DNA of 51,955 nt. It comes from a virus. Taxonomy: Duplodnaviria > Caudoviricetes. The stretch lies in IMG/VR virus record IMGVR_UViG_3300032218_002598, positions 1 to 51,955 of that record. One strand, written 5' to 3'. Positions 30,908 through 51,954 of this stretch are shown one piece after another (position 1 is the stretch's first letter; every line of letters begins with the position of its first letter). The notes below the pieces were generated by a model. That model was not told the origin of the DNA and ran no database searches. It saw nothing but the letters and a program-made list of their open reading frames with translations. The position numbers and the translations under genes are program-made.

Positions 30908-31320
30908 ATATATACTAATTTAATTGCGTTTTCTATATTTGATTCACTTTTATTCATTCCACATTTTATTAACCAATTAACAGCCCTTTCATTTCTTTCC
31001 CACATATAACTTTCGAAGTTGCCGTTAAATTTACTTTTTATTATTTCAAAAACCTTCTCAAGTTTTTCTTTTTTTCTAAACATTTTATTAACTCCAAAAC
31101 TTACTAGAATGTTTTTATAATTAGCCCCATACCCTACCAATATATCATCAACCATTAAATCATAAAATTCACACTCCCCAGTCTTGTCATATTCCAAAAG
31201 TTTTTCATAAATACTCTGAACTAATTCTTTCGTACTTAACTCTTTATCTTTTGGGTCGCAATATCTTGATATATCTTCATCATCCTTAAACGCATACATT
31301 ATTTTAGAATAACTTATCAT
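30898..31320 (-). CDS. GNAT-like protein
   Basis: FGV...FRK and WERNERAVNWLIKCGM; position between nozzle and ejection genes as in podoviruses. Confidence 0.6.
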   Translation of the reverse strand: MISYSKIMYAFKDDEDISRYCDPKDKELSTKELVQSIYEKLLEYDKTGECEFYDLMVDDILVGYGANYKNILVSFGVNKMFRKKEKLEKVFEIIKSKFNGNFESYMWERNERAVNWLIKCGMNKSESNIENAIKLVYICH

Positions 31321-34300
31321 CTATTTGTTAAAGGTGAATCAATATATTTCAAAGATACTATATTTAATACCACTAAGGTAGAGGGAGATATTTTACGGAA
31401 TGTTGGTATAATATACTTTCCCTTCATCGTATCTCCTCCTAGTATTCCCCCTTGTGAATTTATATCTCTTAATATTGTGGCTTCGTAACTACCTTCCAAT
31501 TGGGCAAAGTCAGAATCTACTATATTAGTAGTTTGCTTTGTTGTGCCATAGCTATTAAGGTCAGTTTCCATATTGGGGATATCCCATAATGTACTGCTTA
31601 TTTCAGATACGGCTAAGAAGGTCTTTTTCTGATAGGGATTTTCATTAAAAACGGGCGTAATTGAACTATCTGCTGTCGGGGCACCATACCAAGTATTATA
31701 TGGGGCATTGTTATGTACATATACAATCCCATCTTTAAATGACATTAAAGTAGTACCTAGTGTTACCATCATTTCTGGGTATAATGTAAGGAATGTTTCA
31801 AAGTTCCCTATTTCTTGGTCATATACGATTGTAACTTCATTATTTGTTACACTTGGGCCTAGGGCTAATATATAGTTACCTAATCTTTGGTCAAAGGCCC
31901 CTATCATAGTTCTGCCATCAATATCTCCTACTTGAGCATTTGCCCAGCTATTTACCTTATTTGTTGCAGATATAAATTCCACACCATCTTGACTTGCCCT
32001 ACAAATAGCTCCCTTAATATTTGAAGTAAAGAAATCTGCATAGTTAAAGGAAGCCAAACTTTCAGGGTTATCCCCTATCCCTACATCCCCTTGATAATAT
32101 TGGACAGGATTTAGTAGCTTATCAGATATAACCAAGTTCTCGCTATCCAAGTTTTTAACCATCTGCTGATACAAGGGCACCATTCCCACCTTTAGCTTTT
32201 GGAACACCCTCATAAACCTATCCCTAATTTTAAACCTCATTATATCTCCATAAGTATAATCGTATTGGTCAAAATCATCAAAATAAAATCTATTAAGATT
32301 ATTAGTATTTGAATTAGGTTGGTATGGCTGCCCAAAACGTACTAGTGTTGAATAGTATGCTTCTTTTGCATTTTTATCAATAATATTTGGCCTGCCACTA
32401 ATACTATTTACTGCACTTATATAACTATCTGTTACGTTTCTATCAAGTGGGAAAAAAGATAATGAAGTTAGCAAATTGTACATACTATTATATTCAAAAT
32501 ACCTTTGCCTTAAATAAATGTCCCCCTTATAAAAATTAAATTCAGCTGGTATGCCTGCTGTAAAATCTTGAACTGTAACAGAACCAAGATGAGATCTATC
32601 TGGAGTTTCTGGATTTAATACATAATATTGTTCCCCAAATTCATAATATATTATTTCATTTTTGGGTTGATTTGTTCTATATAATTGAATCATATAGTAA
32701 TACGCAGGATTAAAAGCTCCTGGTATATTAAAAACACCTTTTCTATCTACTTTTATATATGTTTTGCCTGTTGTTTGTTGCCCATTTATAAAAGGATCAG
32801 TTACAATACCAATAACCTGCGTATCATATGTTTCTGGGAATAATGTAAATGGAGCTAAATCTATTCTTTTAATAATTCTAACTCTATCCCCATCTTGGAA
32901 CGACCAACTGCATACGGCAGCTGTTGTAGGAAATGTTTCCTGTTGTAATTTTAAAAATGATAAATCAAAAAAAATATAATGTGGATCTTGTATATCTGCC
33001 TGAACAAACCAATATAAAAACTGCGTACTTTCTTGAGTAAGATAAAATTGAAAACTATGAGCCCACAAGGGTGGTCTATGATATACTTTTGCATTAATAT
33101 AAGGCAACAATACTTGCCCTGCATTATTTTCAGAGTAAGAAGGCGTACTTATTGACTCATTCCATAATATCCCATTTGTCTTACCTTTCTTATCAAAGTA
33201 TGCTATCCCTATATTTCTTTCTGTATTAAATAAAAATGTAGCAAGTGGATTATCCTGTATAGTATCTCGTGGATATTTGATAACTTCTCTACTATGTATA
33301 TATCGATTATTTTTATAATAACCTATTATAAGTGTACCTCGAGAATTGTAGCCTGTGTTAAATAGATACACTGGGACCCCCCACCCTGTCAATTGACCTG
33401 TATTATATATATTTTGAGGTATAGTCGCAGTAGTATCTGTAAGAGTAGTTGTATAAGAAACTAGTAAAGTATCACTGTTCGCTGAAGGTTTTTTTACCCA
33501 TAATTCTATTGTTGTACCAGCAGGTGGCAATCCTGTAAAATAATATTTTGTAATTGGTCGCTCAGTAAGCCCATTCATAGTACCAGTATCAAAGGGTCTT
33601 ATAGACATACTACCCAATCCAGAATTGCCTGGTCCTGCTGGTATTTTTAAAACATCAACAATAACATTGGGCGATAATATTCTATCATACCCTTCTGTTA
33701 TCGCTCCATATACCAATACATTACCATTCGCTAATTCTTGAGCCTTTGCATATGTGGGAACATAATCATAAAGCTGAACGCTTTCGTTAATATCTACGTT
33801 TGGATATGTAGAATCATTGTAAAAGTAAAATGCTATGTCAAGATTATCTACGCCATCTAAATATTCTATTTGTACACTAGAAAATAACCCTGCCGTAAGT
33901 GGATCTACGGTTATGACTAATGAATTATTATCTACTATTGCTGGAAGTGTACAATTTAATAATAAATCATTTACAAGATCAGTAATTGACCACCCTGCTT
34001 GAATAACAGAACTAGTAACTATATAAGGAGACCCAGGCAAATAGTATATTGTTACTTTTGCCCCTGGGATAGGAGTTCCAAAAAAGTTTATTCTTGTAAC
34101 TTGTACGAATGGTGGCCCTACATCTATATTAGAATATACTGTATATTCTACTTGCTTATTTAATGTTTCAATTATCTGAAAGTCGGACCAATCGTTTGTC
34201 TTATTTACATAAGACATCATTAATTCAATTCTCTTAACATCCTTATCTCCTGTATTACATTGAAGATAAATATTGTTATTATTAGATACTGTATTATAAT

Positions 34301-35606
34301 ACTCAAAATTTAATAAATTAGTAGGTATTTGCATTGTGCTTATAGGGCTACATACACTTTTAGTCAAATCATCATAAATGTACCTATACTTAAACCTAAA
34401 AAATTTATCTCTTAAATTATTAGAAACTTTTGTAGTATCATTTTTATATTGCCAGCTTGGAGGTGCCAATGGAGGTCTTTTGCATACATCAATAATATCC
34501 CTTGTTACTGGAGTATATTCTCCCAATTTGAATAATGCTATATCAAGTCCAGTTGGCCGCCCAAGTGTATCTAGGAAATATAACAAATCTCCTTCGTCCC
34601 TATTATAAATATTAACCGATGTTATTTTCTTAGTTACATCAAAGTTTAAAATATCTACCCCTCCCGTATCTACTAAGTTTTCTAATATCTTAGTAACAAG
34701 TTCTGTTTGAATATTATATTCTAATATTTGATGGTACCCTTGATTATTATGAAGAAAATATATTATTGTATTTCTTATTGTATTTGGGTATGCTCCTATA
34801 CAAGTGTACCCTGCGTTAGCTCTCCCTAGTGTTATTGTATAATAACTCCATTGGTAAGCATTAAATGGGTTTGCTATATCGTCATTGTATTCAAAATAAA
34901 AATTAGGAGGAGGGCCTGCTGCCGAGCCATTTGATATTATACCTGAAGGTAATGATACTGTATCTACCCATAAAACAACATCATCAACTCCATCTACGCC
35001 TCCAAATAAACTACCATTAAAAGTTATAAAATCAGCCCCTGCAAATGGATTCCCTGCTTTATAATTAGTACCTCCATAAAGTATAACAGAACCTGAGTAT
35101 ATATTTGAATTAAAATATAATTCAAAAGAACTACCAAATCCTACCCCTGTTGTTGAGGATGGGCTAACCGTATAAACCCCATCGGCAATAGTCCCTGTAA
35201 AAGTCCAAAGGTTTGCAACACTTATACTACTTTGCATAGCTGTTGCCAGCTCATTGCAATAATCTGTAGCAGAAAAAGATTGCGTGCTTGTATAATCTAA
35301 TACTATCCGTGGCGTAAGTGAGGGAAGCTGATTTAACTCTATTAAAGTTCTAGTTCCTGCTGAAATAACATCTGGGGATTCTATAAATATTGTTGCATTT
35401 TGATAAGTAGTTTTTACAATAGTATAGCTTGTAGTAATTACTCCAGACGCCCTATTGCCTATTACGTTTGTGATAGACCTATCATTTGATCCTGCAACAG
35501 CATCCCTAGTGATGTTCTGAGCATCTATATAGCAGTTCTTAGGTAAGATATAATAAGAATCGTCTAAGTTTAGACCCCCGCTAAAATCTGCTTTTAAATC
35601 TATCAC
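31317..35606 (-). CDS. Tail stabilization/nozzle (muzzle) protein with inserted domains
   Basis: GTG start; F.GGLN.D...Y.DA.N, F.F.YRY.YDD...S..SP, IGIAYFD..G, GIG.NPES motifs typical of crAss-like P22 gp10-type proteins. Confidence 0.8.
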   Translation of the reverse strand: MIDLKADFSGGLNLDDSYYILPKNCYIDAQNITRDAVAGSNDRSITNVIGNRASGVITTSYTIVKTTYQNATIFIESPDVISAGTRTLIELNQLPSLTPRIVLDYTSTQSFSATDYCNELATAMQSSISVANLWTFTGTIADGVYTVSPSSTTGVGFGSSFELYFNSNIYSGSVILYGGTNYKAGNPFAGADFITFNGSLFGGVDGVDDVVLWVDTVSLPSGIISNGSAAGPPPNFYFEYNDDIANPFNAYQWSYYTITLGRANAGYTCIGAYPNTIRNTIIYFLHNNQGYHQILEYNIQTELVTKILENLVDTGGVDILNFDVTKKITSVNIYNRDEGDLLYFLDTLGRPTGLDIALFKLGEYTPVTRDIIDVCKRPPLAPPSWQYKNDTTKVSNNLRDKFFRFKYRYIYDDLTKSVCSPISTMQIPTNLLNFEYYNTVSNNNNIYLQCNTGDKDVKRIELMMSYVNKTNDWSDFQIIETLNKQVEYTVYSNIDVGPPFVQVTRINFFGTPIPGAKVTIYYLPGSPYIVTSSVIQAGWSITDLVNDLLLNCTLPAIVDNNSLVITVDPLTAGLFSSVQIEYLDGVDNLDIAFYFYNDSTYPNVDINESVQLYDYVPTYAKAQELANGNVLVYGAITEGYDRILSPNVIVDVLKIPAGPGNSGLGSMSIRPFDTGTMNGLTERPITKYYFTGLPPAGTTIELWVKKPSANSDTLLVSYTTTLTDTTATIPQNIYNTGQLTGWGVPVYLFNTGYNSRGTLIIGYYKNNRYIHSREVIKYPRDTIQDNPLATFLFNTERNIGIAYFDKKGKTNGILWNESISTPSYSENNAGQVLLPYINAKVYHRPPLWAHSFQFYLTQESTQFLYWFVQADIQDPHYIFFDLSFLKLQQETFPTTAAVCSWSFQDGDRVRIIKRIDLAPFTLFPETYDTQVIGIVTDPFINGQQTTGKTYIKVDRKGVFNIPGAFNPAYYYMIQLYRTNQPKNEIIYYEFGEQYYVLNPETPDRSHLGSVTVQDFTAGIPAEFNFYKGDIYLRQRYFEYNSMYNLLTSLSFFPLDRNVTDSYISAVNSISGRPNIIDKNAKEAYYSTLVRFGQPYQPNSNTNNLNRFYFDDFDQYDYTYGDIMRFKIRDRFMRVFQKLKVGMVPLYQQMVKNLDSENLVISDKLLNPVQYYQGDVGIGDNPESLASFNYADFFTSNIKGAICRASQDGVEFISATNKVNSWANAQVGDIDGRTMIGAFDQRLGNYILALGPSVTNNEVTIVYDQEIGNFETFLTLYPEMMVTLGTTLMSFKDGIVYVHNNAPYNTWYGAPTADSSITPVFNENPYQKKTFLAVSEISSTLWDIPNMETDLNSYGTTKQTTNIVDSDFAQLEGSYEATILRDINSQGGILGGDTMKGKYIIPTFRKISPSTLVVLNIVSLKYIDSPLTNR

Positions 35607-41461: not shown

Positions 41462-42364
41462 TTAAAATACCCCCACTGCGGTGGGATTGTTAATAAATAG
41501 ATCTTTATAAATAAATATGTGCCCAGATCTTATAGGCTTCATATTGTTGTAACAAGAAGCTCTTATTATAGTTGTCTTTGGAATTTTTAAACTTTTTGAG
41601 GCTTCCATAGCTGAAGGGTATTCAATGATTTTTTTATCATTAATATAAAGTACTGGCCTTTTAACGTTTGCTTTATTTATTTTTTTTATGGATATTTTTT
41701 GAGGTATTTTATATTTTTTATACCTAAAAACAAACCCAAAAGCATTAGTTTTTTTGCCAGAACAAACATCACATATTTGTGATGCTCTCTTTATCCCACA
41801 ACCCAATGCAGCTGCGGTTGCTGACTCATACTCCTTTATAAATTCTCCATTCGAATTATAACAAAGAACTGGTCTCATTACTTTTTTTCTGCCTTTCTCG
41901 ACTCCCCATTCTGGAACCTTTCTGCCATCTTTTAAATTTCTTTCAGATGCAGCTTTTGACATGATTTTTCTAGTTTCTTCCGAATGTTTTTTACCATAAA
42001 ATGGATTACCTTCTTTAGAAAACTTTTCTGATTGCTCCTTTCTTCTTTTTGTATCTTTTATCCAAGAACTTCTTTGCCCCTCACCTCCCAAAGTCATATT
42101 CATTCCTTGTGGATTTGATTGATAATATGTATTAAATTTTTCAATCCAATACATTTCTCTTTCATTCATCAACCCATCCTCAATTTCTTCAATGACTTCT
42201 AACTTGTGTAAGTCCCATCCATACTTTCTAATACTATTATATAAAATATGTTTGAAACCTTTTTTAGAATGTGATTTGTGGCCATTAATTCTTTTTCTAA
42301 GACAATAGGTTTTACCTATATAAATCTTATTATTTGGATTCGTTATTTTATAAATAAACCCCAT
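41462..42364 (-). CDS. Free-standing GIY-YIG homing endonuclease with NUMOD3/NUMOD1 modules
   Basis: FIYKITN..NKIYIG, N.T.GGEG, NPFYGKKHSEET, FIKEY.S...AA twice. Confidence 0.92.
   Translation of the reverse strand: MGFIYKITNPNNKIYIGKTYCLRKRINGHKSHSKKGFKHILYNSIRKYGWDLHKLEVIEEIEDGLMNEREMYWIEKFNTYYQSNPQGMNMTLGGEGQRSSWIKDTKRRKEQSEKFSKEGNPFYGKKHSEETRKIMSKAASERNLKDGRKVPEWGVEKGRKKVMRPVLCYNSNGEFIKEYESATAAALGCGIKRASQICDVCSGKKTNAFGFVFRYKKYKIPQKISIKKINKANVKRPVLYINDKKIIEYPSAMEASKSLKIPKTTIIRASCYNNMKPIRSGHIFIYKDLFINNPTAVGVF
41463..41487 (-). terminator. Terminator overlapped by the endonuclease 3' end
   Basis: Minus strand TCCCAC-CGCA-GTGGGG-GTATTTT. Confidence 0.6.
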
Positions 42365-42438: not shown

Positions 42439-43914
42439 TTATGAACCTGCTACAATTACGAACTGATTAGCAGCAGCCACACGAAGGCCGCGATACCCAA
42501 TCATTTCGATTTGATCTACCATAGTTCCGTTGGTTGGGTTCATAGAACCACCACCATGTTGCCATACGCGAATACCGTTTCCGATAGTACCACCTTTTTG
42601 AGGTTGTTGATACATAACAGTGATATTCTTGATATTAGCACCATCAGAAGTACTAGCATCTCTAGTTACACCTTGTGGGCAGATAACTCCGAAGTTACGG
42701 AAGTAATCAATGTTTGGAGTTAAACCAGTAGTAACTTCAGTATTGAAGCCTTTGTACTTTTTAACTTTAAACATATAACCATCGATATAAAGACTCTGAA
42801 CGCCATAATTTACGGCAGCTTCTTCTGAAGTTTCATTCTTACCCCAAACATAAGCACCAGCAGGATATTCTTGGAATATACCATCGCTGAAGTTTTGTCT
42901 TTGGAAGATATCTTGTAACCAGATGTTGTCTTTAGCACAACCGTTAACGTCCATTATACGAGTGATCTCGTGTAATTTAGCGATATCAAGAGTACCTGGA
43001 GTGTATGTTACAGTTTCTCCGTCAGCTTGTACTTTAGGAATGAATCCTTCTGTACCTACTGAGTTAGTTCCGTAAAAACCACTTCCGTTATCTACTCTGT
43101 TACCTCTCATTAACTTGTTTTCCACGTTATTAAGGAAACGTCTGTTAGATTTAACAAGACCCTTGTAAGTGAAATAACTTGTACCTGATTGAGAACCACC
43201 AGCCATATCAGGTCCGCTAACGCCAGATGAATAGTAAACTTCAGTCATTTCAGCAAGGTCAGTTGCTTTCCATGATTCACGCATCTCAGTGATGGTGTTT
43301 GATTGTTTAACATCCAAATGGATAAGTGGATCGATTGATTCAGAAGCCTCACCAGCATCCATATCACCACCAAACAAAAGAACATCAGATGTTTCGATTG
43401 TAGCTGATCCCGCAGTTGCCAAAGCTTGTGTAGCCAATTTAGGCTTAACTACAAATTGGAAAGCGAATGCAGTAGTGCTAGTGATAGCTGTGATTTGACC
43501 TTCTACGTTTGTAGATGCAATACGAATAGTTTCACCAACACGAAGTGGAGATGAATCACCATTGTTTGTGCTACCAGCTGGGCTACCATTTGTATAGTGA
43601 TCAGCTGCTGCTAGTTGCAAAGTAACTGATTGACCAGGTACAGATGGATCTCCAGATATAACATCTGAAATGCTAACACCAACCATCAATTTACCGCGAT
43701 TCTCAAACCAAAAGAAGTCACGATTTTTTACTTCTTCCATACCAGCGTAAGTAGCTAGCCATTGAAAGAATTCTTCATTACCGTACTTTTCAACATATTT
43801 GTTGTAGTACTGAGGGGTCAATAACTGAAGGTCAGATATGAGGGCCCTATTTACGCCTGATGCTAACGATATTGCACCTGGCTGTAAAATGTTTCCAGTA
43901 GGAATTCCTGCCAT
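42439..43914 (-). CDS. Major capsid protein (crAss-like HK97 fold)
   Basis: 491 aa; YVEKYGNE, FFWFE.RGKL, LRVGETI, GTEGFI..V...G; follows scaffold; codon usage of a highly expressed gene. Confidence 0.88.
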   Translation of the reverse strand: MAGIPTGNILQPGAISLASGVNRALISDLQLLTPQYYNKYVEKYGNEEFFQWLATYAGMEEVKNRDFFWFENRGKLMVGVSISDVISGDPSVPGQSVTLQLAAADHYTNGSPAGSTNNGDSSPLRVGETIRIASTNVEGQITAITSTTAFAFQFVVKPKLATQALATAGSATIETSDVLLFGGDMDAGEASESIDPLIHLDVKQSNTITEMRESWKATDLAEMTEVYYSSGVSGPDMAGGSQSGTSYFTYKGLVKSNRRFLNNVENKLMRGNRVDNGSGFYGTNSVGTEGFIPKVQADGETVTYTPGTLDIAKLHEITRIMDVNGCAKDNIWLQDIFQRQNFSDGIFQEYPAGAYVWGKNETSEEAAVNYGVQSLYIDGYMFKVKKYKGFNTEVTTGLTPNIDYFRNFGVICPQGVTRDASTSDGANIKNITVMYQQPQKGGTIGNGIRVWQHGGGSMNPTNGTMVDQIEMIGYRGLRVAAANQFVIVAGS

Positions 43915-45006: not shown

Positions 45007-45318
45007 TTATTTTGTTGAAATTTTTGCTAACATTACTAGTACTTTATCTATTAAACTTACATCTGGAGAGTACAATTTGACATACCTTCCTACCACATTT
45101 AATCTCCCTATTTTATCCCCTATAACTGAACTAATAGAATTATCATTTAAAATAGTAGCTGACACCTCAAAAAAGTTATCAGCAGTTAGTGCATTACCAT
45201 CTGTTACTCCCTCTACCGCTCCACTATCAATTGTTGAAGATAAATAAACATTACCACTATTTAATTGTATTAAACAATAATCATAATTACTTACATCAAT
45301 AACAATATATCCATCCAT
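45007..45318 (-). CDS. C-terminal part of small paralog copy 4
   Basis: DVSNYDYCLIQ...STIDSGAVEGV.D...VVGRYVKL...VLVMLAKI; lacks the MIAQYL start. Confidence 0.8.
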   Translation of the reverse strand: MDGYIVIDVSNYDYCLIQLNSGNVYLSSTIDSGAVEGVTDGNALTADNFFEVSATILNDNSISSVIGDKIGRLNVVGRYVKLYSPDVSLIDKVLVMLAKISTK

Positions 45319-45336
45319 AGTTTTGGTTTTGTTTTA

Positions 45337-48231
45337 TTATACTCCTATTAATGTTACAGTGTTGTTTGCTTGTAAATATGTTATATCACAATCTATCGAA
45401 TATATAGGAGGTGGGAAAACATCTCTACAATTAGCTATACAGCAACATTCAGTTGTAGCAAGTGAATTAGAAACTGTTAATGTTATTGTATTACCTGTTA
45501 TATTATCAAACATATCACTATTATTACATGTATATGGATAACCTAAATTAATACAGCTTGGTATATAGATTGTTTGTATAGATAAGTTATTTTGGAACCC
45601 AAGTTCTTCAATGGTTTCCATTTTATCTAAATAGGCTGTTGTTAAACTAAAACAACCTTGAAATGATCCAGCTTTTGCATAAGTTACACCAAGTAAATAA
45701 GCTGATGTGATAATACAAGCTCCAAAACAATTGCCCCCAAGAGCTGTAATACAACCATTTGCATCTATTATCTCTACTAAATTAGTTTTCCAATCTACTA
45801 TTTCATATAAGGTTACATCAGCACCACCATATAGGTAAACACTACTGCCTACAGTTACAGATGTAAAAGGAACTGCTGGCCCTATATGAGGAAACCCAAA
45901 TAAAGTATTCCATTGAGTTACATCTGTAGGATCTACAACAGGATATGAGCCATTAAACTTTAACACTAATGGTATTGACACTGTGTTATTATGTATTAAT
46001 GTTGTTATATCAGCATCTGGGTGATGACTACCACCGCAATCCATTACATATGGAGAAACTATTAAAGATATAGTCTGCCCAGTGATCCCATTAAATACAT
46101 CATTACCATGACAACCATCACCAATAGCTGTACATACAGGGATTGATAGATATGTTAAAGAGAAACAATTTTCAAAACACTCATTCCCAACTGTTATTAA
46201 ACTTGGTAAATCAACTGTTGTTAGAGATGTACAACCTAGGAAACAATAATCACCAGCATTTATTAGATTTGGTAATGATATTGTTGTTGATGATGAACAA
46301 TTATAGAAACAACTAGCACCAGCAGTTGTTAAATTTGGTAATGATATTGATGTTAGAGATGTACAACTTTGGAAACAAGCACCACCAGCAGTTGTTAGAC
46401 TTGGTAATGATATTGTTGTTAGAGATGTACAACTTACGAAACAAGCACCACCAGCAGTTGTTAGACTTGGTAAGTCTATTGATGTTAGAGATGTACAACT
46501 TCCAAAACAATCATTACCAGCAGTTGTTAGATTTTGTAATGATATTGATGATAGAGATATACAACTTGCGAAACAATCATTACCAGCAGTTGTTAGAAGT
46601 GGTAAATTTACTGATGATAGAGCTGTACAACTTTCAAAACAACCATCACCAGCAGTTGTTAGACTTGGTAAGTCTATTGATGTTAGAGATGTACAACTTC
46701 CAAAACAACCATTACCAGCAGCTATTATACAATTTGATTGATTGTCTAATATTTGTTGTATTGTAGATCCATTAAATAAATCATTCTTTAATGTTATTCC
46801 AAGACCCCCAAATAAATAAGTGATAGAAGGACTACCGCTTACATAATATACAGATGTAAAAGGAGTTCCATTTGTAGGTAGGTAAAATAATTTATTCCAA
46901 TCATCAACATTACTTGGATCACCAACTATACCATCTCCCATTATCCTTAATGGGAATAATACAGTGTTATTAGCTATTAGATATTGAAGATCCCCATCTG
47001 GAAGTCCTACATTACAAGTAAGTAGAGCATCAGGAACAATCACTGTAATAGTTTGCCCTGTTATCCCAAAAAATACATCATTATTTCCTACGGACCCTCC
47101 TAAATTAGTACATAATGGTATTGATAGTGATGTTAGGGATGTACAATTTGAGAAAAATCCATAACCAATAGTTGTTATAATTGGGAACTCTACTGTTGTT
47201 AAAGATGTACAACTTGTAAAACAATCATTACCAGCTGTTTCTAAAATCGGTAATGATATTGATGATAGATTTGTACAATTACTAAAACACTCTCCACCCA
47301 TAATAGTCACAAGTGGCAAATCTACTGTTGCTAAATTTGTACATGAATAGAAGCAATAATTGTTAATGACTGTTAGAGCAGGTAATGATACTGTTGTTAG
47401 AGATGTACAACTTCGGAAACAACCACCCCCAGCAGTTTCTAGAAGTGGTAAATCTACTGATGTTAGAGATATACAATACCCAAAACAATCATCACCAGCA
47501 GTTGTTAAACTTGGTAGTGATATTGAAGTTAAAGATGAGCAATAATTAAAACACTGAAGACTAGCTGTTGTTAGAAGTGGTAATGATACTGATGCTAAAG
47601 ATGTACACCCAATAAAACAATTATCCCCAGCACTTATTAGATTTGGGAAATCTATTGAATCTAGTAAATAACAATTCCAAAATGTATATTCACCTAAAGT
47701 TGTTATAGAGCTAAATGGTAATGTTAAACCACTACTTGGAAGAATAGTACATTCAAAAAAAGTTGTAGCTGCTATAGTGGAACATGATGGTAGATATACA
47801 TAGTATAAGTTAAAACATCCTCCAAAAACACCAAAACTTATACTTATATTATCATTAAGTGTTTGTGTTACATTAGGACACGATATTCTTTCTAAATTAG
47901 ATTGTTCAAGAGGTCCACCAAAGGTTTGATCTCCTAAAGTGATAATACAACCAGCATCATCATTGAATTCTAATAAATGTATATTGTCTGAAAATAGGTT
48001 GGCTTTAGTTTCAATATTAGCCCCACCATATAATTTCACCTCATTACCAACTATTTCAACTGATGTAAAAGGAGTCCCATATGTAGGGAGGTCAAAATAT
48101 GTGTTCCAAGCTGCTAAGTCATTTGCTGTTACAGGTGTATTGGCTATATCATCCCATAGAAGTCTTAATCCAGGGGATGCAGGGGGCGTAATAAAGTCCT
48201 TATTCGTAAATTGTAAATACTGTGCTATCAT
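45337..48231 (-). CDS. BspA-type leucine-rich repeat protein fused to N-terminal peptide of paralog copy 4
   Basis: MIAQYLQFT start; three capped solenoids (WN..F..P...PFTSV...YGG to D.D...L..NNTV) of 22-aa CTSLTSISLPSLTTAG..CF repeats. Confidence 0.88.
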   Translation of the reverse strand: MIAQYLQFTNKDFITPPASPGLRLLWDDIANTPVTANDLAAWNTYFDLPTYGTPFTSVEIVGNEVKLYGGANIETKANLFSDNIHLLEFNDDAGCIITLGDQTFGGPLEQSNLERISCPNVTQTLNDNISISFGVFGGCFNLYYVYLPSCSTIAATTFFECTILPSSGLTLPFSSITTLGEYTFWNCYLLDSIDFPNLISAGDNCFIGCTSLASVSLPLLTTASLQCFNYCSSLTSISLPSLTTAGDDCFGYCISLTSVDLPLLETAGGGCFRSCTSLTTVSLPALTVINNYCFYSCTNLATVDLPLVTIMGGECFSNCTNLSSISLPILETAGNDCFTSCTSLTTVEFPIITTIGYGFFSNCTSLTSLSIPLCTNLGGSVGNNDVFFGITGQTITVIVPDALLTCNVGLPDGDLQYLIANNTVLFPLRIMGDGIVGDPSNVDDWNKLFYLPTNGTPFTSVYYVSGSPSITYLFGGLGITLKNDLFNGSTIQQILDNQSNCIIAAGNGCFGSCTSLTSIDLPSLTTAGDGCFESCTALSSVNLPLLTTAGNDCFASCISLSSISLQNLTTAGNDCFGSCTSLTSIDLPSLTTAGGACFVSCTSLTTISLPSLTTAGGACFQSCTSLTSISLPNLTTAGASCFYNCSSSTTISLPNLINAGDYCFLGCTSLTTVDLPSLITVGNECFENCFSLTYLSIPVCTAIGDGCHGNDVFNGITGQTISLIVSPYVMDCGGSHHPDADITTLIHNNTVSIPLVLKFNGSYPVVDPTDVTQWNTLFGFPHIGPAVPFTSVTVGSSVYLYGGADVTLYEIVDWKTNLVEIIDANGCITALGGNCFGACIITSAYLLGVTYAKAGSFQGCFSLTTAYLDKMETIEELGFQNNLSIQTIYIPSCINLGYPYTCNNSDMFDNITGNTITLTVSNSLATTECCCIANCRDVFPPPIYSIDCDITYLQANNTVTLIGV
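46190..47660 (-). repeat. Two arrays of 66-nt coding tandem repeats (approx. 46190-46720 and 47130-47660)
   Basis: Recurring ACCAGCAGTTGTTAGACTTGGTAA...TGTTAGAGATGTACAACT with 66-nt period. Confidence 0.9.
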
Positions 48232-48232
48232 A

Positions 48233-48532
48233 TTACCCTATTTTAGCTAACATTACTAATACTTTACTAGCTCTGCCATTTATAATTACATATCTTCCTA
48301 CAACATCAATTCTATATATACCATCTTGATTCGTATATTGAACTAATGAATTATCAGAAATTTTTGTAGTTGATACACCATAATAATGATCATATTGACT
48401 AAAAGAAGAAATAAACACTAAATCTGAAATACCAATTGCTTGTATTAAACAATAGTCATAATTACTTGCATCTATAATAGCAAGATCAGTTGTGTTCAAT
48501 TCTTTTGTTACATCTAAATACTGCGCTATCAT
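48233..48532 (-). CDS. Small paralog copy 3 (intact; putative capsid decoration protein)
   Basis: MIAQYLD...SNYDYCLIQ...VVGRYV...VLVMLAKIG. Confidence 0.8.
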   Translation of the reverse strand: MIAQYLDVTKELNTTDLAIIDASNYDYCLIQAIGISDLVFISSFSQYDHYYGVSTTKISDNSLVQYTNQDGIYRIDVVGRYVIINGRASKVLVMLAKIG

Positions 48533-48533
48533 A

Positions 48534-48734
48534 TTATCCTATTTTAGATAACATTATTAATACTTTACAATCTGGCGGGAATTGAAACCCATCAGCTGTT
48601 TCTATTCTAATATATTTCCCAACCACATCAAATTTAAAAGAACCATCTTCATTAGTTTCAGATACATTATCATTGTTTGATATGTTAGTAGCTGATGTTA
48701 AACTAAAATTATCGGCTGGTAATAATACATCCAT
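48534..48734 (-). CDS. C-terminal part of small paralog copy 2
   Basis: ADNF...SAT...VVGKYIRI...VLIMLSKIG. Confidence 0.75.
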   Translation of the reverse strand: MDVLLPADNFSLTSATNISNNDNVSETNEDGSFKFDVVGKYIRIETADGFQFPPDCKVLIMLSKIG

Positions 48735-48752
48735 TTTTTTTAATTTTAATTT

Positions 48753-50477
48753 TTAATTTTTTAAACAGCGAACATTCATACCAGATTTTTTTGGTTGACT
48801 ATTTATGTTGCCATTTTTATCTGCATTATTCATATCAATCTGATAGGCGTTACTATTACTAACCTCTGTTGAAGTCCAAAAATGGCCATAAGCTTTTAAT
48901 TGATCAAAAACCCCAGTATTTACACGCCTACCCCCACCAAGAGCAGTAAACCCAAGACTATCTGTAGCTGGAACCCCATTATTAAGATTAGGAGAATTCC
49001 AATGTGCAGTTCCTGCTTCCTTTAATAAACCTGCTGCCGTACTATAAGTTGTTGGGTTAGTTGGATTGGTAACTACAGGTCCACAAACATTCATAAGTGT
49101 TGTCCATTCGGCTAGTGTTGGAATATGATACCCAGTAGGGGCTAACCCTCTTGGATCATTTACAGCGTACCAATTATATAGCCTGCCATAAACACACTCA
49201 GTTTGAGGGTCATTATTGTAATAACACCATGCCCCTGTTGTAGCTCTTGACCATGCAGTAGGATCTTGTATTTCAGGAATTAAATCCCCATTTGCATAAC
49301 GATCTACAGTTAAACTAGAACCTTTCCATATTTGAGACCCTATTGTAACGTCTGGCAAAGATGGGCAATCTTTAATAAGTCTTACTGAATTCCCATCGTC
49401 TAAAGAAACTCCATAACAATTTGTTATGTTACCTACCCCACTGTTACAGCCACCAGAACATCCATTAATTTGATTTGGAGGGTAAGCCGCTCTCATTCTG
49501 GCTACCCATGCTGAATCAAAATTTACAGGAACACAACTTGAAATAGGGGTAAGTGGGAAAGCTGCTTGTTTATTAGCAAGTTGTATTGTAGATGTCCAAA
49601 ACAAACCTTCCGATTGAAGCCAAAAGAACCCTGATGTATTTATACAGGAAGGACAAATTGCCCTATACCCCCCAGGTAATGCTGTAAACCCAGTTGCATT
49701 TGTTGCATCATTAGGGTTAAACCAATGTGCAGTGCCTGCTTCTTTTAAAAGTCTTCCAGCAATTAAGTTTGATGCTACAACTTGATTTAATGGAGCAATA
49801 ACATTCCACATTGAATAATATTCATAATATGATGGAATACGATATCCGACAGGGGCTAAACCTCTTGGATCTTTTACAGCAGCATAATTATAAAGTTTCC
49901 CGTAAATACATTCATTTGCAGGATCATTATTATAATAACACCATGCGCCTGTTGTTAAAGATGCCCATTGCGTATAATCTGTTACTTGTGGGATAGGGTC
50001 TCCATTTCTATATGTTGTTACATTCAAATTGCAAGCTGTCCATGTTTGTGTCCCAATTGTTACGTCTGGTAAAGTGCAACAATTTGAAGGGCAATTAAAA
50101 ACATTTTTAGGGTTTTCAGTACAAGGGAACCCTATTTCCCAATTAACTTTTGCTGGCCCCCCTGGGCTATCACCACATACAGATTCAGTAGCTCCTGCGG
50201 CAAGATTTAGTGTTGTATAAATGCCATTACAATTATTGTAATAAGCAACTTTACTAGTAGTACTTATATTTGTAAATTTAATACAAAAACAATTAGGTAC
50301 TGTATTAGAAGGCGACCTAAGTAGTGCACTTTCTGATATAGTAGATTTAAAATTTATAAGTCTCCCATCGGCTCCAATTATCTGTACAATAGCATAATCA
50401 TACCCGCTTACATCAAGTGTTAGCTGGGATGCCCCATTTTTTATTTGTGTTGTTAAATCTAAATATTGCGCTATCAT
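48753..50477 (-). CDS. Tandem Fib_succ_major (FISUMP) domain protein fused to N-terminal half of paralog copy 2
   Basis: MIAQYLD...SGYDY start; two copies of VTIG.Q.W...L.V..Y.NGD.IP...YG.LYN..AV...GLAP.GY.IP...GFTAL.GG.R...FWTST...G..VR. Confidence 0.9.
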   Translation of the reverse strand: MIAQYLDLTTQIKNGASQLTLDVSGYDYAIVQIIGADGRLINFKSTISESALLRSPSNTVPNCFCIKFTNISTTSKVAYYNNCNGIYTTLNLAAGATESVCGDSPGGPAKVNWEIGFPCTENPKNVFNCPSNCCTLPDVTIGTQTWTACNLNVTTYRNGDPIPQVTDYTQWASLTTGAWCYYNNDPANECIYGKLYNYAAVKDPRGLAPVGYRIPSYYEYYSMWNVIAPLNQVVASNLIAGRLLKEAGTAHWFNPNDATNATGFTALPGGYRAICPSCINTSGFFWLQSEGLFWTSTIQLANKQAAFPLTPISSCVPVNFDSAWVARMRAAYPPNQINGCSGGCNSGVGNITNCYGVSLDDGNSVRLIKDCPSLPDVTIGSQIWKGSSLTVDRYANGDLIPEIQDPTAWSRATTGAWCYYNNDPQTECVYGRLYNWYAVNDPRGLAPTGYHIPTLAEWTTLMNVCGPVVTNPTNPTTYSTAAGLLKEAGTAHWNSPNLNNGVPATDSLGFTALGGGRRVNTGVFDQLKAYGHFWTSTEVSNSNAYQIDMNNADKNGNINSQPKKSGMNVRCLKN

Positions 50478-50821
50478 TACCCTATTTTAGTCATCATTAT
50501 CAATAACCCCGTAGCTGTAGCAGCTCCTGTCAATTTGATATATCTTCCTACTACTCCTAATCTAACAGGTACATTATCTGCTGCTGTAGTTGTAAATACC
50601 CCATCTATCAATTTAGTACCCCCTGAAGTTGTAAAATTAGTGGCAGTTGTTGGGCTATCATCTTGAACACCCTCTATAGCTCCCCCATCTATTGTCGCTA
50701 ATATACTAACAGAAGTGCCCAATGGCTGTATAACACAATAATCATAGTTGCTTACTTCAAAAACAACTTCACCTCCGTTTGTGTTAAACTCACCTGTTAA
50801 ATCTAAATACTGTGCTAACAT
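50477..50821 (-). CDS. Small paralog copy 1 (intact; putative capsid decoration protein)
   Basis: MLAQYLD...SNYDYCVIQ...TIDGGAIEGV.D...VVGRYIKL...MMTKIG; between portal and scaffold. Confidence 0.8.
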   Translation of the reverse strand: MLAQYLDLTGEFNTNGGEVVFEVSNYDYCVIQPLGTSVSILATIDGGAIEGVQDDSPTTATNFTTSGGTKLIDGVFTTTAADNVPVRLGVVGRYIKLTGAATATGLLIMMTKIG

Positions 50822-50825
50822 AGTT

Positions 50826-50975
50826 TTATTTTTTTATTTTAATTTTTCTTGCCTTCTTAGGTAGTTTTAACCCCTTACTAGCTTTATCCCATTCTCCAAT
50901 ATTTACTCCTTGCTTTTCAAGTTCTTTTTTGTGAACGTGAAAATATTTCATCTGTTGTAAAGATTTATATGGCAT
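50826..50975 (-). CDS. Small basic phage protein (49 aa, not in ORF track)
   Basis: MPYKSLQQMKYFHVHKKELEKQGVNIGEWDKASKGLKLPKKARKIKIKK; MPxKS..Q...EW...KG.KLP pattern. Confidence 0.75.
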   Translation of the reverse strand: MPYKSLQQMKYFHVHKKELEKQGVNIGEWDKASKGLKLPKKARKIKIKK

Positions 50976-50976
50976 A

Positions 50977-51954
50977 TTACGCTTGTTGTGGCATTTCTTG
51001 CCCTTGTTCTTGTGTTGGGGGCATTTCTTGCCCTTGTTCAGGTTGCTGCCCTTCTTGAGGCTGTTCTTGCCCCTGCCCTTGACCTTGCTGTTGCTCCTGT
51101 CCTTGCTGCATCATTTGATCCATAGCCATATTTTCTGCAAATAATGGTAACGCTACGTTATTGATAATCTCTGCTTCCAAAGACTTAAGCGCATCAGGGA
51201 CTTGCATACCCTTTTGATAGATGCCAAATATCCCCGACAAGATTGTCTCTTTTTGTCTTTCCCTGCTAACCATTGACTCTATTTGAGCTTTAGTTTGCAT
51301 TTCCATTTCCATTGTCTTTCTTTTCTCCTGCTCTGATGCTTGTGCTGATTGCATTTGAATTTGTGCATTCATCTCACTTTGCTGTTGAGCCTTCTGCATT
51401 TCTTGCATTATCATAGTCTTTTGCCCCTTGCGTAGTAAAACTTCAGCTAAAGTAACATCTTCCTTCGCCACTCTCATTAATTGGAATGGGTCTATATACA
51501 TTACAAAGGAAGGATTGCTTTGAACCATATAGTTTAACATTGATTCAAACTTTTGCAATTCTACCTCTGTAGGTAACATCTGTATTCTTGTAGAGAAGTT
51601 TCTTCCCTTTACATCATCTTCTTTAATTAGTTTTCTATACACAGAAGAACCGTATTCAACGCTATCCTTAAGTAAGCAACATACTTTCTTTGCCGTATCT
51701 GCCATAACCCACTTATATGCATCATACATATATCCTGTAGCGTTATTGGCTGCATCTTGGGCTGTATTTACATTTGAAGATGTAACCCTTGGTCTTAATG
51801 CTTGTGCAATAAGGTTTGGATCTTCTCCAAGTTCATCTTTTAATACTTGATAATGGAACTGATAAAGGTCTACAAGCCCTTTCATTTGATTCAGGAAGCC
51901 TGCGTTAGCAAGTTCTTGAATAGGTACAGGGATTGGATTCCCTTCTGCATCTCT
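50977..51954 (-). CDS. Portal protein, C-terminal part (5' end outside window)
   Basis: Frame open to window edge (RDAEGNPIPVPIQELANAG...); coiled coil and Gln-rich tail; synteny with scaffold and capsid. Confidence 0.8.
   Translation of the reverse strand, partial: RDAEGNPIPVPIQELANAGFLNQMKGLVDLYQFHYQVLKDELGEDPNLIAQALRPRVTSSNVNTAQDAANNATGYMYDAYKWVMADTAKKVCCLLKDSVEYGSSVYRKLIKEDDVKGRNFSTRIQMLPTEVELQKFESMLNYMVQSNPSFVMYIDPFQLMRVAKEDVTLAEVLLRKGQKTMIMQEMQKAQQQSEMNAQIQMQSAQASEQEKRKTMEMEMQTKAQIESMVSRERQKETILSGIFGIYQKGMQVPDALKSLEAEIINNVALPLFAENMAMDQMMQQGQEQQQGQGQGQEQPQEGQQPEQGQEMPPTQEQGQEMPQQA

Follow-up and report, generated by a model that had tools for sequence, protein, structure and literature searches.

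Why would two of four neighbouring copies of a small phage gene be cut, with the front piece of each joined in frame to a large adhesin and the back piece kept as a separate gene just downstream? The question is raised by an array of paralogs on the minus strand of IMG/VR virus record IMGVR_UViG_3300032218_002598, from an uncultured freshwater phage; the whole record (51,955 bp, CheckV completeness 98) was analysed and is referred to below as the window. The reading we favour, with a probability of roughly 0.45, is that adhesin cassettes were captured by paralogs of a YomS/XepA-like head-module protein, and that the two halves of each interrupted copy re-associate and thereby tether the adhesin.

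An array of four paralogs, two of them interrupted

The order of genes on the minus strand is portal, an open reading frame (ORF) of 49 amino acids (aa), c1, c2 fusion, c2C, c3, c4 fusion, c4C, a scaffold-like gene and a candidate for the major capsid protein (MCP), where c1 to c4 are the paralogs and c2C and c4C the orphaned C-terminal pieces. The parts of the array are as follows (LRR, leucine-rich repeat; nt, nucleotides).

50477..50821 (-): c1, intact paralog, 114 aa, a YomS/XepA-like jelly-roll head-module protein
48753..50477 (-): c2 fusion, 574 aa, N-fragment plus Fib_succ cargo
50322..50477 (-): c2 N-fragment, about residues 1-52, strands 1-4 of the model, joined in frame to the cargo
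48753..50321 (-): c2 cargo, about 75 aa rich in Cys, then two Fib_succ_major domains and the stop
48735..48752 (-): A-rich spacer of 18 nt from the stop of the c2 fusion to the start of c2C
48534..48734 (-): c2C orphan, 66 aa, C-terminal half of the jelly roll with its own ATG
48233..48532 (-): c3, intact paralog, 99 aa, with a shorter version of the long loop
45337..48231 (-): c4 fusion, 964 aa, a 15-codon tag plus LRR cargo
48187..48231 (-): c4 tag, the first 15 codons of the paralog (strand 1 and a short helix in the model), in frame with the cargo
45337..48186 (-): c4 cargo, a Pro-rich linker, three units (head domain plus BspA-type LRRs) and the stop
45319..45336 (-): A-rich c4 spacer of 18 nt, opening with a second TAA
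45007..45318 (-): c4C orphan, 103 aa, the jelly roll minus strand 1 and helix, with its own ATG

A first-pass annotation of the sequence had described four paralogs between the portal and scaffold-like genes, copies 1 and 3 being intact, and both the ORFs and the profile searches bear this out, for a protein of 100-118 aa. When the record is searched with c3, it returns c1 (E 1.9e-11), c4C (E 5.4e-9, c3 residues 16-98), c2C (E 1.2e-7, residues 48-99) and the N-terminal part of c2 (E 2.7e-6, residues 1-46). A profile made from members of the family in relatives assigns complementary ranges to the pieces, with c4C matched at E 3.5e-22 (positions 16-98), c2C at 2.5e-14 (47-99) and the N-terminal part of c2 at 1.7e-13 (1-46). 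Both orphans are complete through the last strand of the family and retain its motifs. At the DNA level, the surroundings of the c4 tag are 84% identical over 70 nt to the junction between the end of c2C and the start of c3. This junction of C-terminal and N-terminal strands is the best-conserved stretch between the paralogs and a likely site of unequal crossover.

Fold of the family and positions of the cuts

The AlphaFold2 (AF2) model of c1 is a confident jelly roll, with a predicted local distance difference test score (pLDDT) of 90.0 and a predicted template modelling score (pTM) of 0.81. When compared with 48,161 PDB representatives, the predicted fold is a 4+4 antiparallel beta-sandwich that can be superposed on YomS or on the C-domain of XepA (PDB 6i5o, 6i56) at 8-18% sequence identity in the structural alignments. 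The elements of the model follow in the order strand 2-7, helix 9-14, strands 18-22, 28-34 and 38-43, a long loop, and four strands ending with 105-112. The cut in c4 lies after residue 15, as first annotated, and falls between the helix at 9-14 and the strand at 18-22. The alignment shifts the cut in c2 from about residue 55, as annotated, to about residue 52, which is in the long loop (44-67) where pLDDT is lowest, and four strands remain on each piece.

The compatibility of the two pieces of copy 2 was assessed with a read-through model, in which the sequence was read past the stop (TAA taken as X), aligned to the family and folded as a single chain. The result is a complete YomS-like jelly roll composed of both pieces, with pLDDT of 89-95 over the c2 N-fragment and 91-96 over c2C.

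The relatives of this protein carry additional sequence in related ways. A profile search of 1.84 billion representatives returned 157 proteins at E <=0.001, mostly of 110-130 aa. All five inspected relatives of 184-193 aa (P0112, P0113, P0124, P0126, P0132) are single chains with about 70 aa inserted into the long loop that is cut in c2. In all seven inspected relatives whose match starts at residue 18-20, the C-terminal strand has been moved ahead of the N-terminal strand; six of these permutants bear C-terminal extensions, up to 420 aa in total and often past Thr-rich linkers (P0101, P0128, P0131, P0134, P0135, P0140), and the seventh (P0099) has a Thr-rich tail only. The circularly permuted type occurs in three of the 44 related loci that hold the gene, namely L034 (8050-8433), L039 (7970-8350) and L035 (8133-8771); the extension that is fused in L035 is a separate downstream ORF in L034 and L039. 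The circular permutants show the first and last strands to be neighbours and suggest, as far as sequences and models go, that neither terminus is free to carry cargo and that plain terminal fusion is avoided. Such a constraint would account for the routes that cargo takes in this family, namely insertion into a loop, permutation and splitting.

Junctions and start sites

In the window, the missing C-terminal parts are, as the first-pass annotation reported, ORFs of their own that lie in the same frame 18 nt past the TAA and both begin with ATGGATG. In other sequences the 18 nt and the shared frame are not conserved. The spacer is 18, 15 or 10 nt long among c4 orthologs: contigs of two sequencing runs (X2 and X4) have 3 nt deleted from it, which leaves 15 nt and removes the second TAA, and in the c4 ortholog of the related locus L166 it is 10 nt long and out of frame. 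The c2 and c4 spacers also differ in sequence within the window. Judged from these comparisons, the exact 18 nt and the common frame are coincidental.

The starts of the orphans resemble those of other genes of this phage, where the ordinary strong-start context is ATGG behind an A-rich leader of 15-22 nt; the leader measures 15 nt at the scaffold-like gene, 21 nt at the MCP candidate and 17-22 nt at others. Both c2C and c4C share this context. The intact copies, in contrast, begin where stop and start overlap or after a gap of 1-4 nt; for c2, c3 and c4 it is such an overlap or a gap of 1 nt. The ATG of each orphan stands directly before an Asp codon that aligns with the Asp of the family, which mostly explains the shared 'GATG'. 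By their sequence, the orphans thus have what appear to be real, native-looking start sites, from which they would be translated. The proposal that a common insertion mechanism supplied the restart finds no support here, as spacer sequence and length vary and the spacers resemble ordinary A-rich leaders.

The same junctions bear on the possibility that each interrupted copy is made as a single polypeptide, whether through readthrough of the stop codon, bypassing by the ribosome or splicing of the RNA; the product would be a jelly roll with a very large insertion in one loop. The in-frame position of both window orphans 18 nt past the stop would fit, and so would the relatives with single-chain loop insertions of about 70 aa. 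Against it stand the tandem TAATAA that ends the c4 fusion, where readthrough would call for a leaky single stop, the out-of-frame spacer of L166 and the presence in both orphans of an ATG of their own in strong-start context. With spacers of 18, 15 and 10 nt, readthrough and a fixed insertion signature are both disfavoured. Between 44500 and 51955 no intron or other RNA family was found (Rfam, E up to 1) except for one chance-level snoRNA match, and the inserts contain no intein domain recognized by Pfam. We therefore regard a single polypeptide as very improbable.

The cargo is not bounded by direct or inverted repeats beyond the homology of the paralogs and the LRR repeats themselves. Promoter candidates were not more numerous than in shuffled sequences (29 found against 39 expected), and no terminator was found at the junctions. 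Joints in run X2 that skip 5153 or 5483 nt were considered as possible excision products and rejected; their sides of 23-29 nt match with 85% likeness and link conserved motifs of the paralogs, and they are read as intact family genes of other phages.

Cargo modules

The first-pass assignment of two Fib_succ domains to c2 and about 950 aa of LRRs to c4 agrees with the Pfam profiles. The c2 cargo matches Fib_succ_major (PF09603) in two stretches (E 3.6e-69, 233 bits against a curated cut-off of 33.9), and the c4 cargo matches the BspA-type LRR_5 (PF13306) in seven stretches (E 7.6e-100, 330 bits against a curated cut-off of 27.7). The GC content of the c2 cargo is 0.39 compared with 0.30-0.35 in adjacent bins.

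Both modules occur widely on other proteins. Relatives of the Fib_succ cargo were found in 77 viral loci, and the LRR module with the head domain 'WNT[YF]FDLP..GTPFTSV' was matched by ORFs in 16 of the 17 loci from a motif scan. The jelly-roll family profile had no match among the ORFs of these 77 Fib_succ and 17 LRR-motif loci. Instead, three unrelated N-terminal anchors each carry both kinds of cargo, C-terminally, in other phage contigs. The first is a major tail protein (phrog_1407; group L126, L128, L133, L170, L172), found with Fib_succ in L126 (E 2.5e-7) and with LRR in L170 (E 4.7e-4). The second is a peptide of about 30 aa, 'MAIPxKQIG' (group L106, L178, L180, L169, L183), with Fib_succ in L106 and LRR in L178 and L180, and the third a domain of about 70 aa, 'MxVLIxLT', with Fib_succ in L083, L088 and L105 and LRR in L167 and L173. 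Thr-rich linkers are frequent in these anchor-cargo proteins. In addition, a contig of run X3 is identical to window positions 47551-47874 and diverges upstream of c4 codon 21 into a Thr-rich linker, according to hand translation. These sequences indicate a combinatorial system of anchors and cargos, in which the Fib_succ and LRR modules would be shuffled, C-terminal cassettes for surface display. Shuffled C-terminal cassettes fit the insertion of a unit consisting of linker, module, stop and leader into a paralog.

Several minor features of the cargo genes were recorded. The Cys-rich segment of c2 (about 75 aa, 50055-50321, fusion residues ~53-130) lies ahead of the first Fib_succ domain, and its residues 62-102 have pLDDT of 65-78; a precomputed database listing gives PF26707 for the c2 fusion, which our own Pfam scan did not return. 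The LRR gene contains two runs of 66-nt tandem repeats at 46063-47736, with 16 copies in register. Contigs of the probable source run break inside these repeats (46401-46679), and a plus-strand ORF of 146 aa at 46326-46766 is probably an artefact of the repeats.

Persistence of the c4 split

A metagenome scan with a nine-row family alignment yielded 20 loci. In the related locus L147 the order is portal, the 49-aa ORF, an ortholog of c1 (77% identity, tblastn) and directly the c4 fusion, with no c2, c2C or c3. Its 15-aa tag is identical to that of the window, with one synonymous change, and its LRR protein is orthologous and differs by indels in repeat number. The block of c2 fusion, c2C and c3 (window 48233-50477, compared with L147:2699-4515) is either an insertion here or a deletion there.

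The other side of the cargo is seen in L166, where the end of the LRR gene is followed by the 10-nt spacer, c4C (101 of 103 residues identical), the scaffold-like gene and the MCP gene. At the LRR end, DNA identity between the window and L166 is 63-73% in four of six 60-nt bins (35% and 83% in two gap-rich bins), and from the start of the orphan through the scaffold-like gene it is 95-100% in every full bin. The mosaic boundary thus lies within about 30 nt of the orphan start. The synonymous (dS) and nonsynonymous (dN) divergences between the window and L166 are as follows.

LRR end: dS 0.41, dN 0.33
c4C: dS 0.03, dN 0.008
Scaffold-like gene: dS 0.024, dN 0.005

The LRR-end cargo beside c4C has diverged at 41% of residues (43 of 105 codons). 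The c4C cluster covers at least 16 contigs and contains four variants, each exactly 103 aa long. Its most distant member has seven changes, all conservative, and a c1 variant with an equal-sized longest contig has 11 changes in 114 residues. We take this as moderate evidence, of a comparative kind, that the split state of c4 is maintained, with tag and orphan kept intact around a cargo that changes fast or is exchanged. The pattern further suggests a role for the conserved tag and orphan as recombination arms.

These observations can be set against an alternative in which the anchor works alone, the N-fragment docking the adhesin either directly in the pocket of a capsomer or by exchanging strands with c1 and c3 rings, and the orphans are leftovers. 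In the crAss001 phage, the head fibres gp21 and gp29 are reported to bind hexon pockets by their N-terminal 38 and 58 residues, respectively, which suffice for that binding (PMC10172136). The same cargo as here rides on N-terminal anchors of about 30 aa in other phage contigs, intact paralogs are available in the array, the c2 unit is present in one genome only, and the dN/dS ratio of c4C (0.28, from 4 nucleotide differences) is uninformative. Leftovers, however, would hardly be expected to look like the two orphans, which are complete to the last strand with family motifs kept, and which are preceded by strong-start leaders, where the intact copies have overlapping starts. The exact 103-aa form of c4C has persisted with conservative changes only beside a cargo 41% diverged, and two independent interruptions in one array have each retained exactly the complementary piece. 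On this balance we think it rather unlikely that the anchor suffices.

Other fusions of this family were sought without success. No protein classed as longer was present among the 8000 candidates of a search with the family alignment, which is weak evidence; in proteins of 315-1005 aa, residues 1-60 of c2 recovered c2 alone, 1 of 89 candidates; and a scan of viral contigs for the N-terminal motif gave 18 matches in 16 loci, including six family genes (116-126 aa), none of them fused. The c4 fusion and the alignment of c4 with its L147 ortholog found no relatives among viral contigs.

Genomic context of the family

The genes that flank the array are listed below.

50977..51954 (-): portal gene, C-terminal part, running off the end of the record and identified through its L147 ortholog
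50826..50975 (-): small basic ORF of 49 aa in the gap between portal gene and array, with orthologs in nine related loci and L147
43936..44991 (-): acidic scaffold-like gene, 351 aa, positioned ahead of the MCP gene
42439..43914 (-): MCP candidate, 491 aa, phrog_13704

The portal label given by the first-pass annotation is confirmed by the full-length ortholog in L147 (804 aa), which matches the portal protein family phrog_6547 at E 1.4e-51; over most 60-nt bins the portal-gene DNA of the window and L147 is 97-100% identical. The scaffold label is inferential: the protein has only a weak match, to a phrog of unknown function, and in 45 of the 48 related loci a homolog comes before the MCP gene, of which the remaining three loci carry a part only. 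The MCP candidate matches phrog_13704, a virion structural protein of the head and packaging category, at E 9.9e-12. Neither the MCP candidate nor c3 had a tblastn match in 50,697 phage records, and phmmer found no PDB sequence for the MCP candidate or the L147 portal.

The 48 related loci were recovered through relatives of the MCP candidate (61-72% identity), and the jelly-roll gene is present in 44 of them, as one copy in 41 and as two copies in three (L040, L046, L047), split in none. In 43 of the 44 it is flanked by a portal and a scaffold-like gene; in the exception, L036, the portal gene runs off the start of the locus, and no portal gene of its own was tallied there. Most relatives also encode a helical DUF5856 protein of 123-144 aa (PF19174; phrog_858) just ahead of the scaffold-like gene (e.g., L165:718-1101, L154:1772-2038) and an additional protein of about 90 aa just ahead of the jelly-roll gene; tblastn found neither in the window (nothing below E 0.09).

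The constancy of this neighbourhood is relevant to another alternative, that the family is not a capsid protein at all. Its members could be associated with lysis, tail or neck, or be released, and the array would tether or deliver adhesins off the head, in which case the logic of the split could still hold. The best structural relatives, XepA and YomS, are encoded in lytic cassettes, and XepA is reported to be absent from mature particles (PMC6834076); the family itself has no match in PHROG or Pfam. The flanking genes nevertheless form a head-gene module in 43 of 44 loci, and the corresponding neighbourhood of crAss001 holds a head fibre gene, gp21 being numbered next to portal gp20 (PMC10172136). 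YomS and XepA form pentameric discs, which the authors speculate may bind capsid vertices (PMC6834076), and the base of the HFTV1 capsid turret, a ring of gp30 accompanied by a separate turret head adhesin (gp31), has a XepA-like fold (PMC12494034). A location off the head thus seems improbable to us. Taken together, synteny and fold make a role at the head surface, at the centres of capsomers, the most economical reading; the terms decoration and capsid display used in the first-pass annotation draw on gene position and fold resemblance only and would be best regarded as suggestions by analogy.

Proposed mechanism and its assessment

Under the reading we favour, the locus would be a variable display array built on a small jelly-roll protein, present as one gene in most relatives and as four paralogs here. 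A ready-made adhesin cassette, consisting of a linker, a C-terminal adhesin module, a stop codon and an A-rich leader, would have recombined into a surface loop of two paralogs. The outcome in each case would be a gene for an N-fragment joined to an adhesin (15 aa with LRRs, or about 52 aa with two Fib_succ domains) and a separately initiated gene for the remainder of the jelly roll, which the N-fragment would complete non-covalently. In c4 the strand-plus-helix tag would dock onto c4C, and in c2 the two four-strand halves would co-fold. The adhesin would then be held by a subunit that joins the intact paralogs in assemblies on the surface of the particle, probably at the centres of capsomers, with the C-terminus of the adhesin remaining free, and the conserved tag and orphan could double as homology arms for swaps of cargo alleles.

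Fragment complementation, as first proposed for this locus, is the explanation best supported by the loop positions of the cuts, the rebuilt fold, the persistence of the c4 split and the cargo that relatives carry in the same loop or after circular permutation, and it is the association itself that we infer. Several points weigh against it. The halves of copy 2 do not rejoin seamlessly, since the unit lacks about four residues of a conserved loop ('EGVx'), including positions beside the near-invariant D-G. The read-through model is a continuous chain with an alignment derived from intact relatives, and it shows compatibility rather than association. To our knowledge, an interleaved 4+4 jelly roll formed from two chains is a demanding fold, and c4C, which is missing just one strand and a helix, might conversely be able to fold in the absence of the tag. 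This genome, on two contigs, is the only one in which the c2 fusion, c2C and c3 were found, and for that reason the c2 unit may be a young or recent addition; for c4C the few differences leave dN/dS uninformative, as noted above. The jelly-roll protein matches no Pfam or PHROG family, none of 26 family members scoring better than E 0.012 against Pfam; XepA (PF27453) is absent among the Pfam matches of these 26, and in the nearest named cluster of the Atlas PF27453 is found on 23% of members (score 0.92). YomS and XepA are reported as lytic-cassette proteins of unsettled function (PMC6834076). Finally, translation of the orphans, binding of the pieces and presence in the virion are deduced from sequence and models rather than from direct evidence.

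A more specific version of the mechanism can be stated, which we consider possible although doubtful. It would be a natural system of split-protein docking on the phage head, in which a 15-residue tag or a four-strand half plugs adhesins into the remainder of the jelly roll and the conserved arms swap cassettes shared with tail proteins.

Comparison with known systems

Genes in pieces are known from phages in which homing endonucleases have inserted; the split nrdA of phage Aeh1 reportedly arose by insertion of a free-standing homing endonuclease. Each piece in such systems is translated by itself, and reassembly of the pieces yields a functional protein. The window is similar in that a phage gene is interrupted by inserted DNA and both pieces are kept as ORFs that jointly cover the original protein, copy 2 without its roughly four loop residues. 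It differs in that the nrdA type has as its insert a selfish nuclease gene that brings a start of its own, whereas here the adhesin is fused in frame to the N-terminal piece, and the inserts contain no nuclease domain, Pfam finding Fib_succ and LRR_5 only. Reassembly would here create a new tether, whereas in the nrdA type the host protein merely survives.

C-terminal display domains, Ig-like and others, are known on phage tail tube and capsid proteins. Those are ordinary single chains, unlike the present case in which the anchor would be a fragment of a split gene. The literature searched yielded no account of an adhesin inserted in frame so as to split the gene of a structural protein; the nearest kinds are the genes in pieces produced by homing endonucleases and the head fibres or two-protein capsid turrets.

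The likeness to the crAss001 head fibres lies in the use of small head-module proteins whose N-terminal part docks at the capsomer centre (here only proposed) and displays a distal domain, and in the muzzle domain that this phage has in common with crassviruses. It is drawn without a relation in sequence or fold, and gp21 and gp29 are single chains, unlike the products of the split genes of the window (PMC10172136). YomS and XepA are encoded beside lysis genes, unsplit and without such cargo, whereas the genes described here are in a head module, split and with adhesin cargo (PMC6834076).

Implications

Should the halves associate, they would constitute a natural tag-and-catcher pair made from a small jelly roll, potentially a compact part for engineered phage display. 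Phages would have a new route for attaching large host-binding modules to a particle protein whose terminal strands, judging by the circular permutants, appear to be neighbours, and the three cargo solutions of the family, namely loop insertion, circular permutation and splitting, would be explained. The more specific docking version, if true, would make this a modular and evolvable display locus with the tag-and-catcher pair built in. Even if the orphans were dead remnants, the locus would still illustrate cleanly how an array of structural genes captures a cassette. In either case it is a hypervariable locus for display, from an uncultured lineage that has a muzzle-protein domain in common with crassviruses, and the mosaic boundary near the orphan start can help in studies of the movement of adhesin cassettes between head and tail proteins.

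Other genes in the window

A 1429-aa protein at 31317-35606 (-) matches the crassvirus muzzle protein's C-terminal domain (PF25729, 33.4 bits against a cut-off of 27) and also phrog_14478. By sequence similarity, the muzzle-domain match suggests a distant crass-like tail in a genome of just 52 kb. Just beyond the MCP gene, after a gap of 74 nt and about 2.6 kb from the array, lies a gene for a 300-aa GIY-YIG homing-endonuclease-like protein with NUMOD1 and NUMOD3 motifs (41462-42364, minus strand, E 1.4e-10), which may promote recombination or exchange in the head module.

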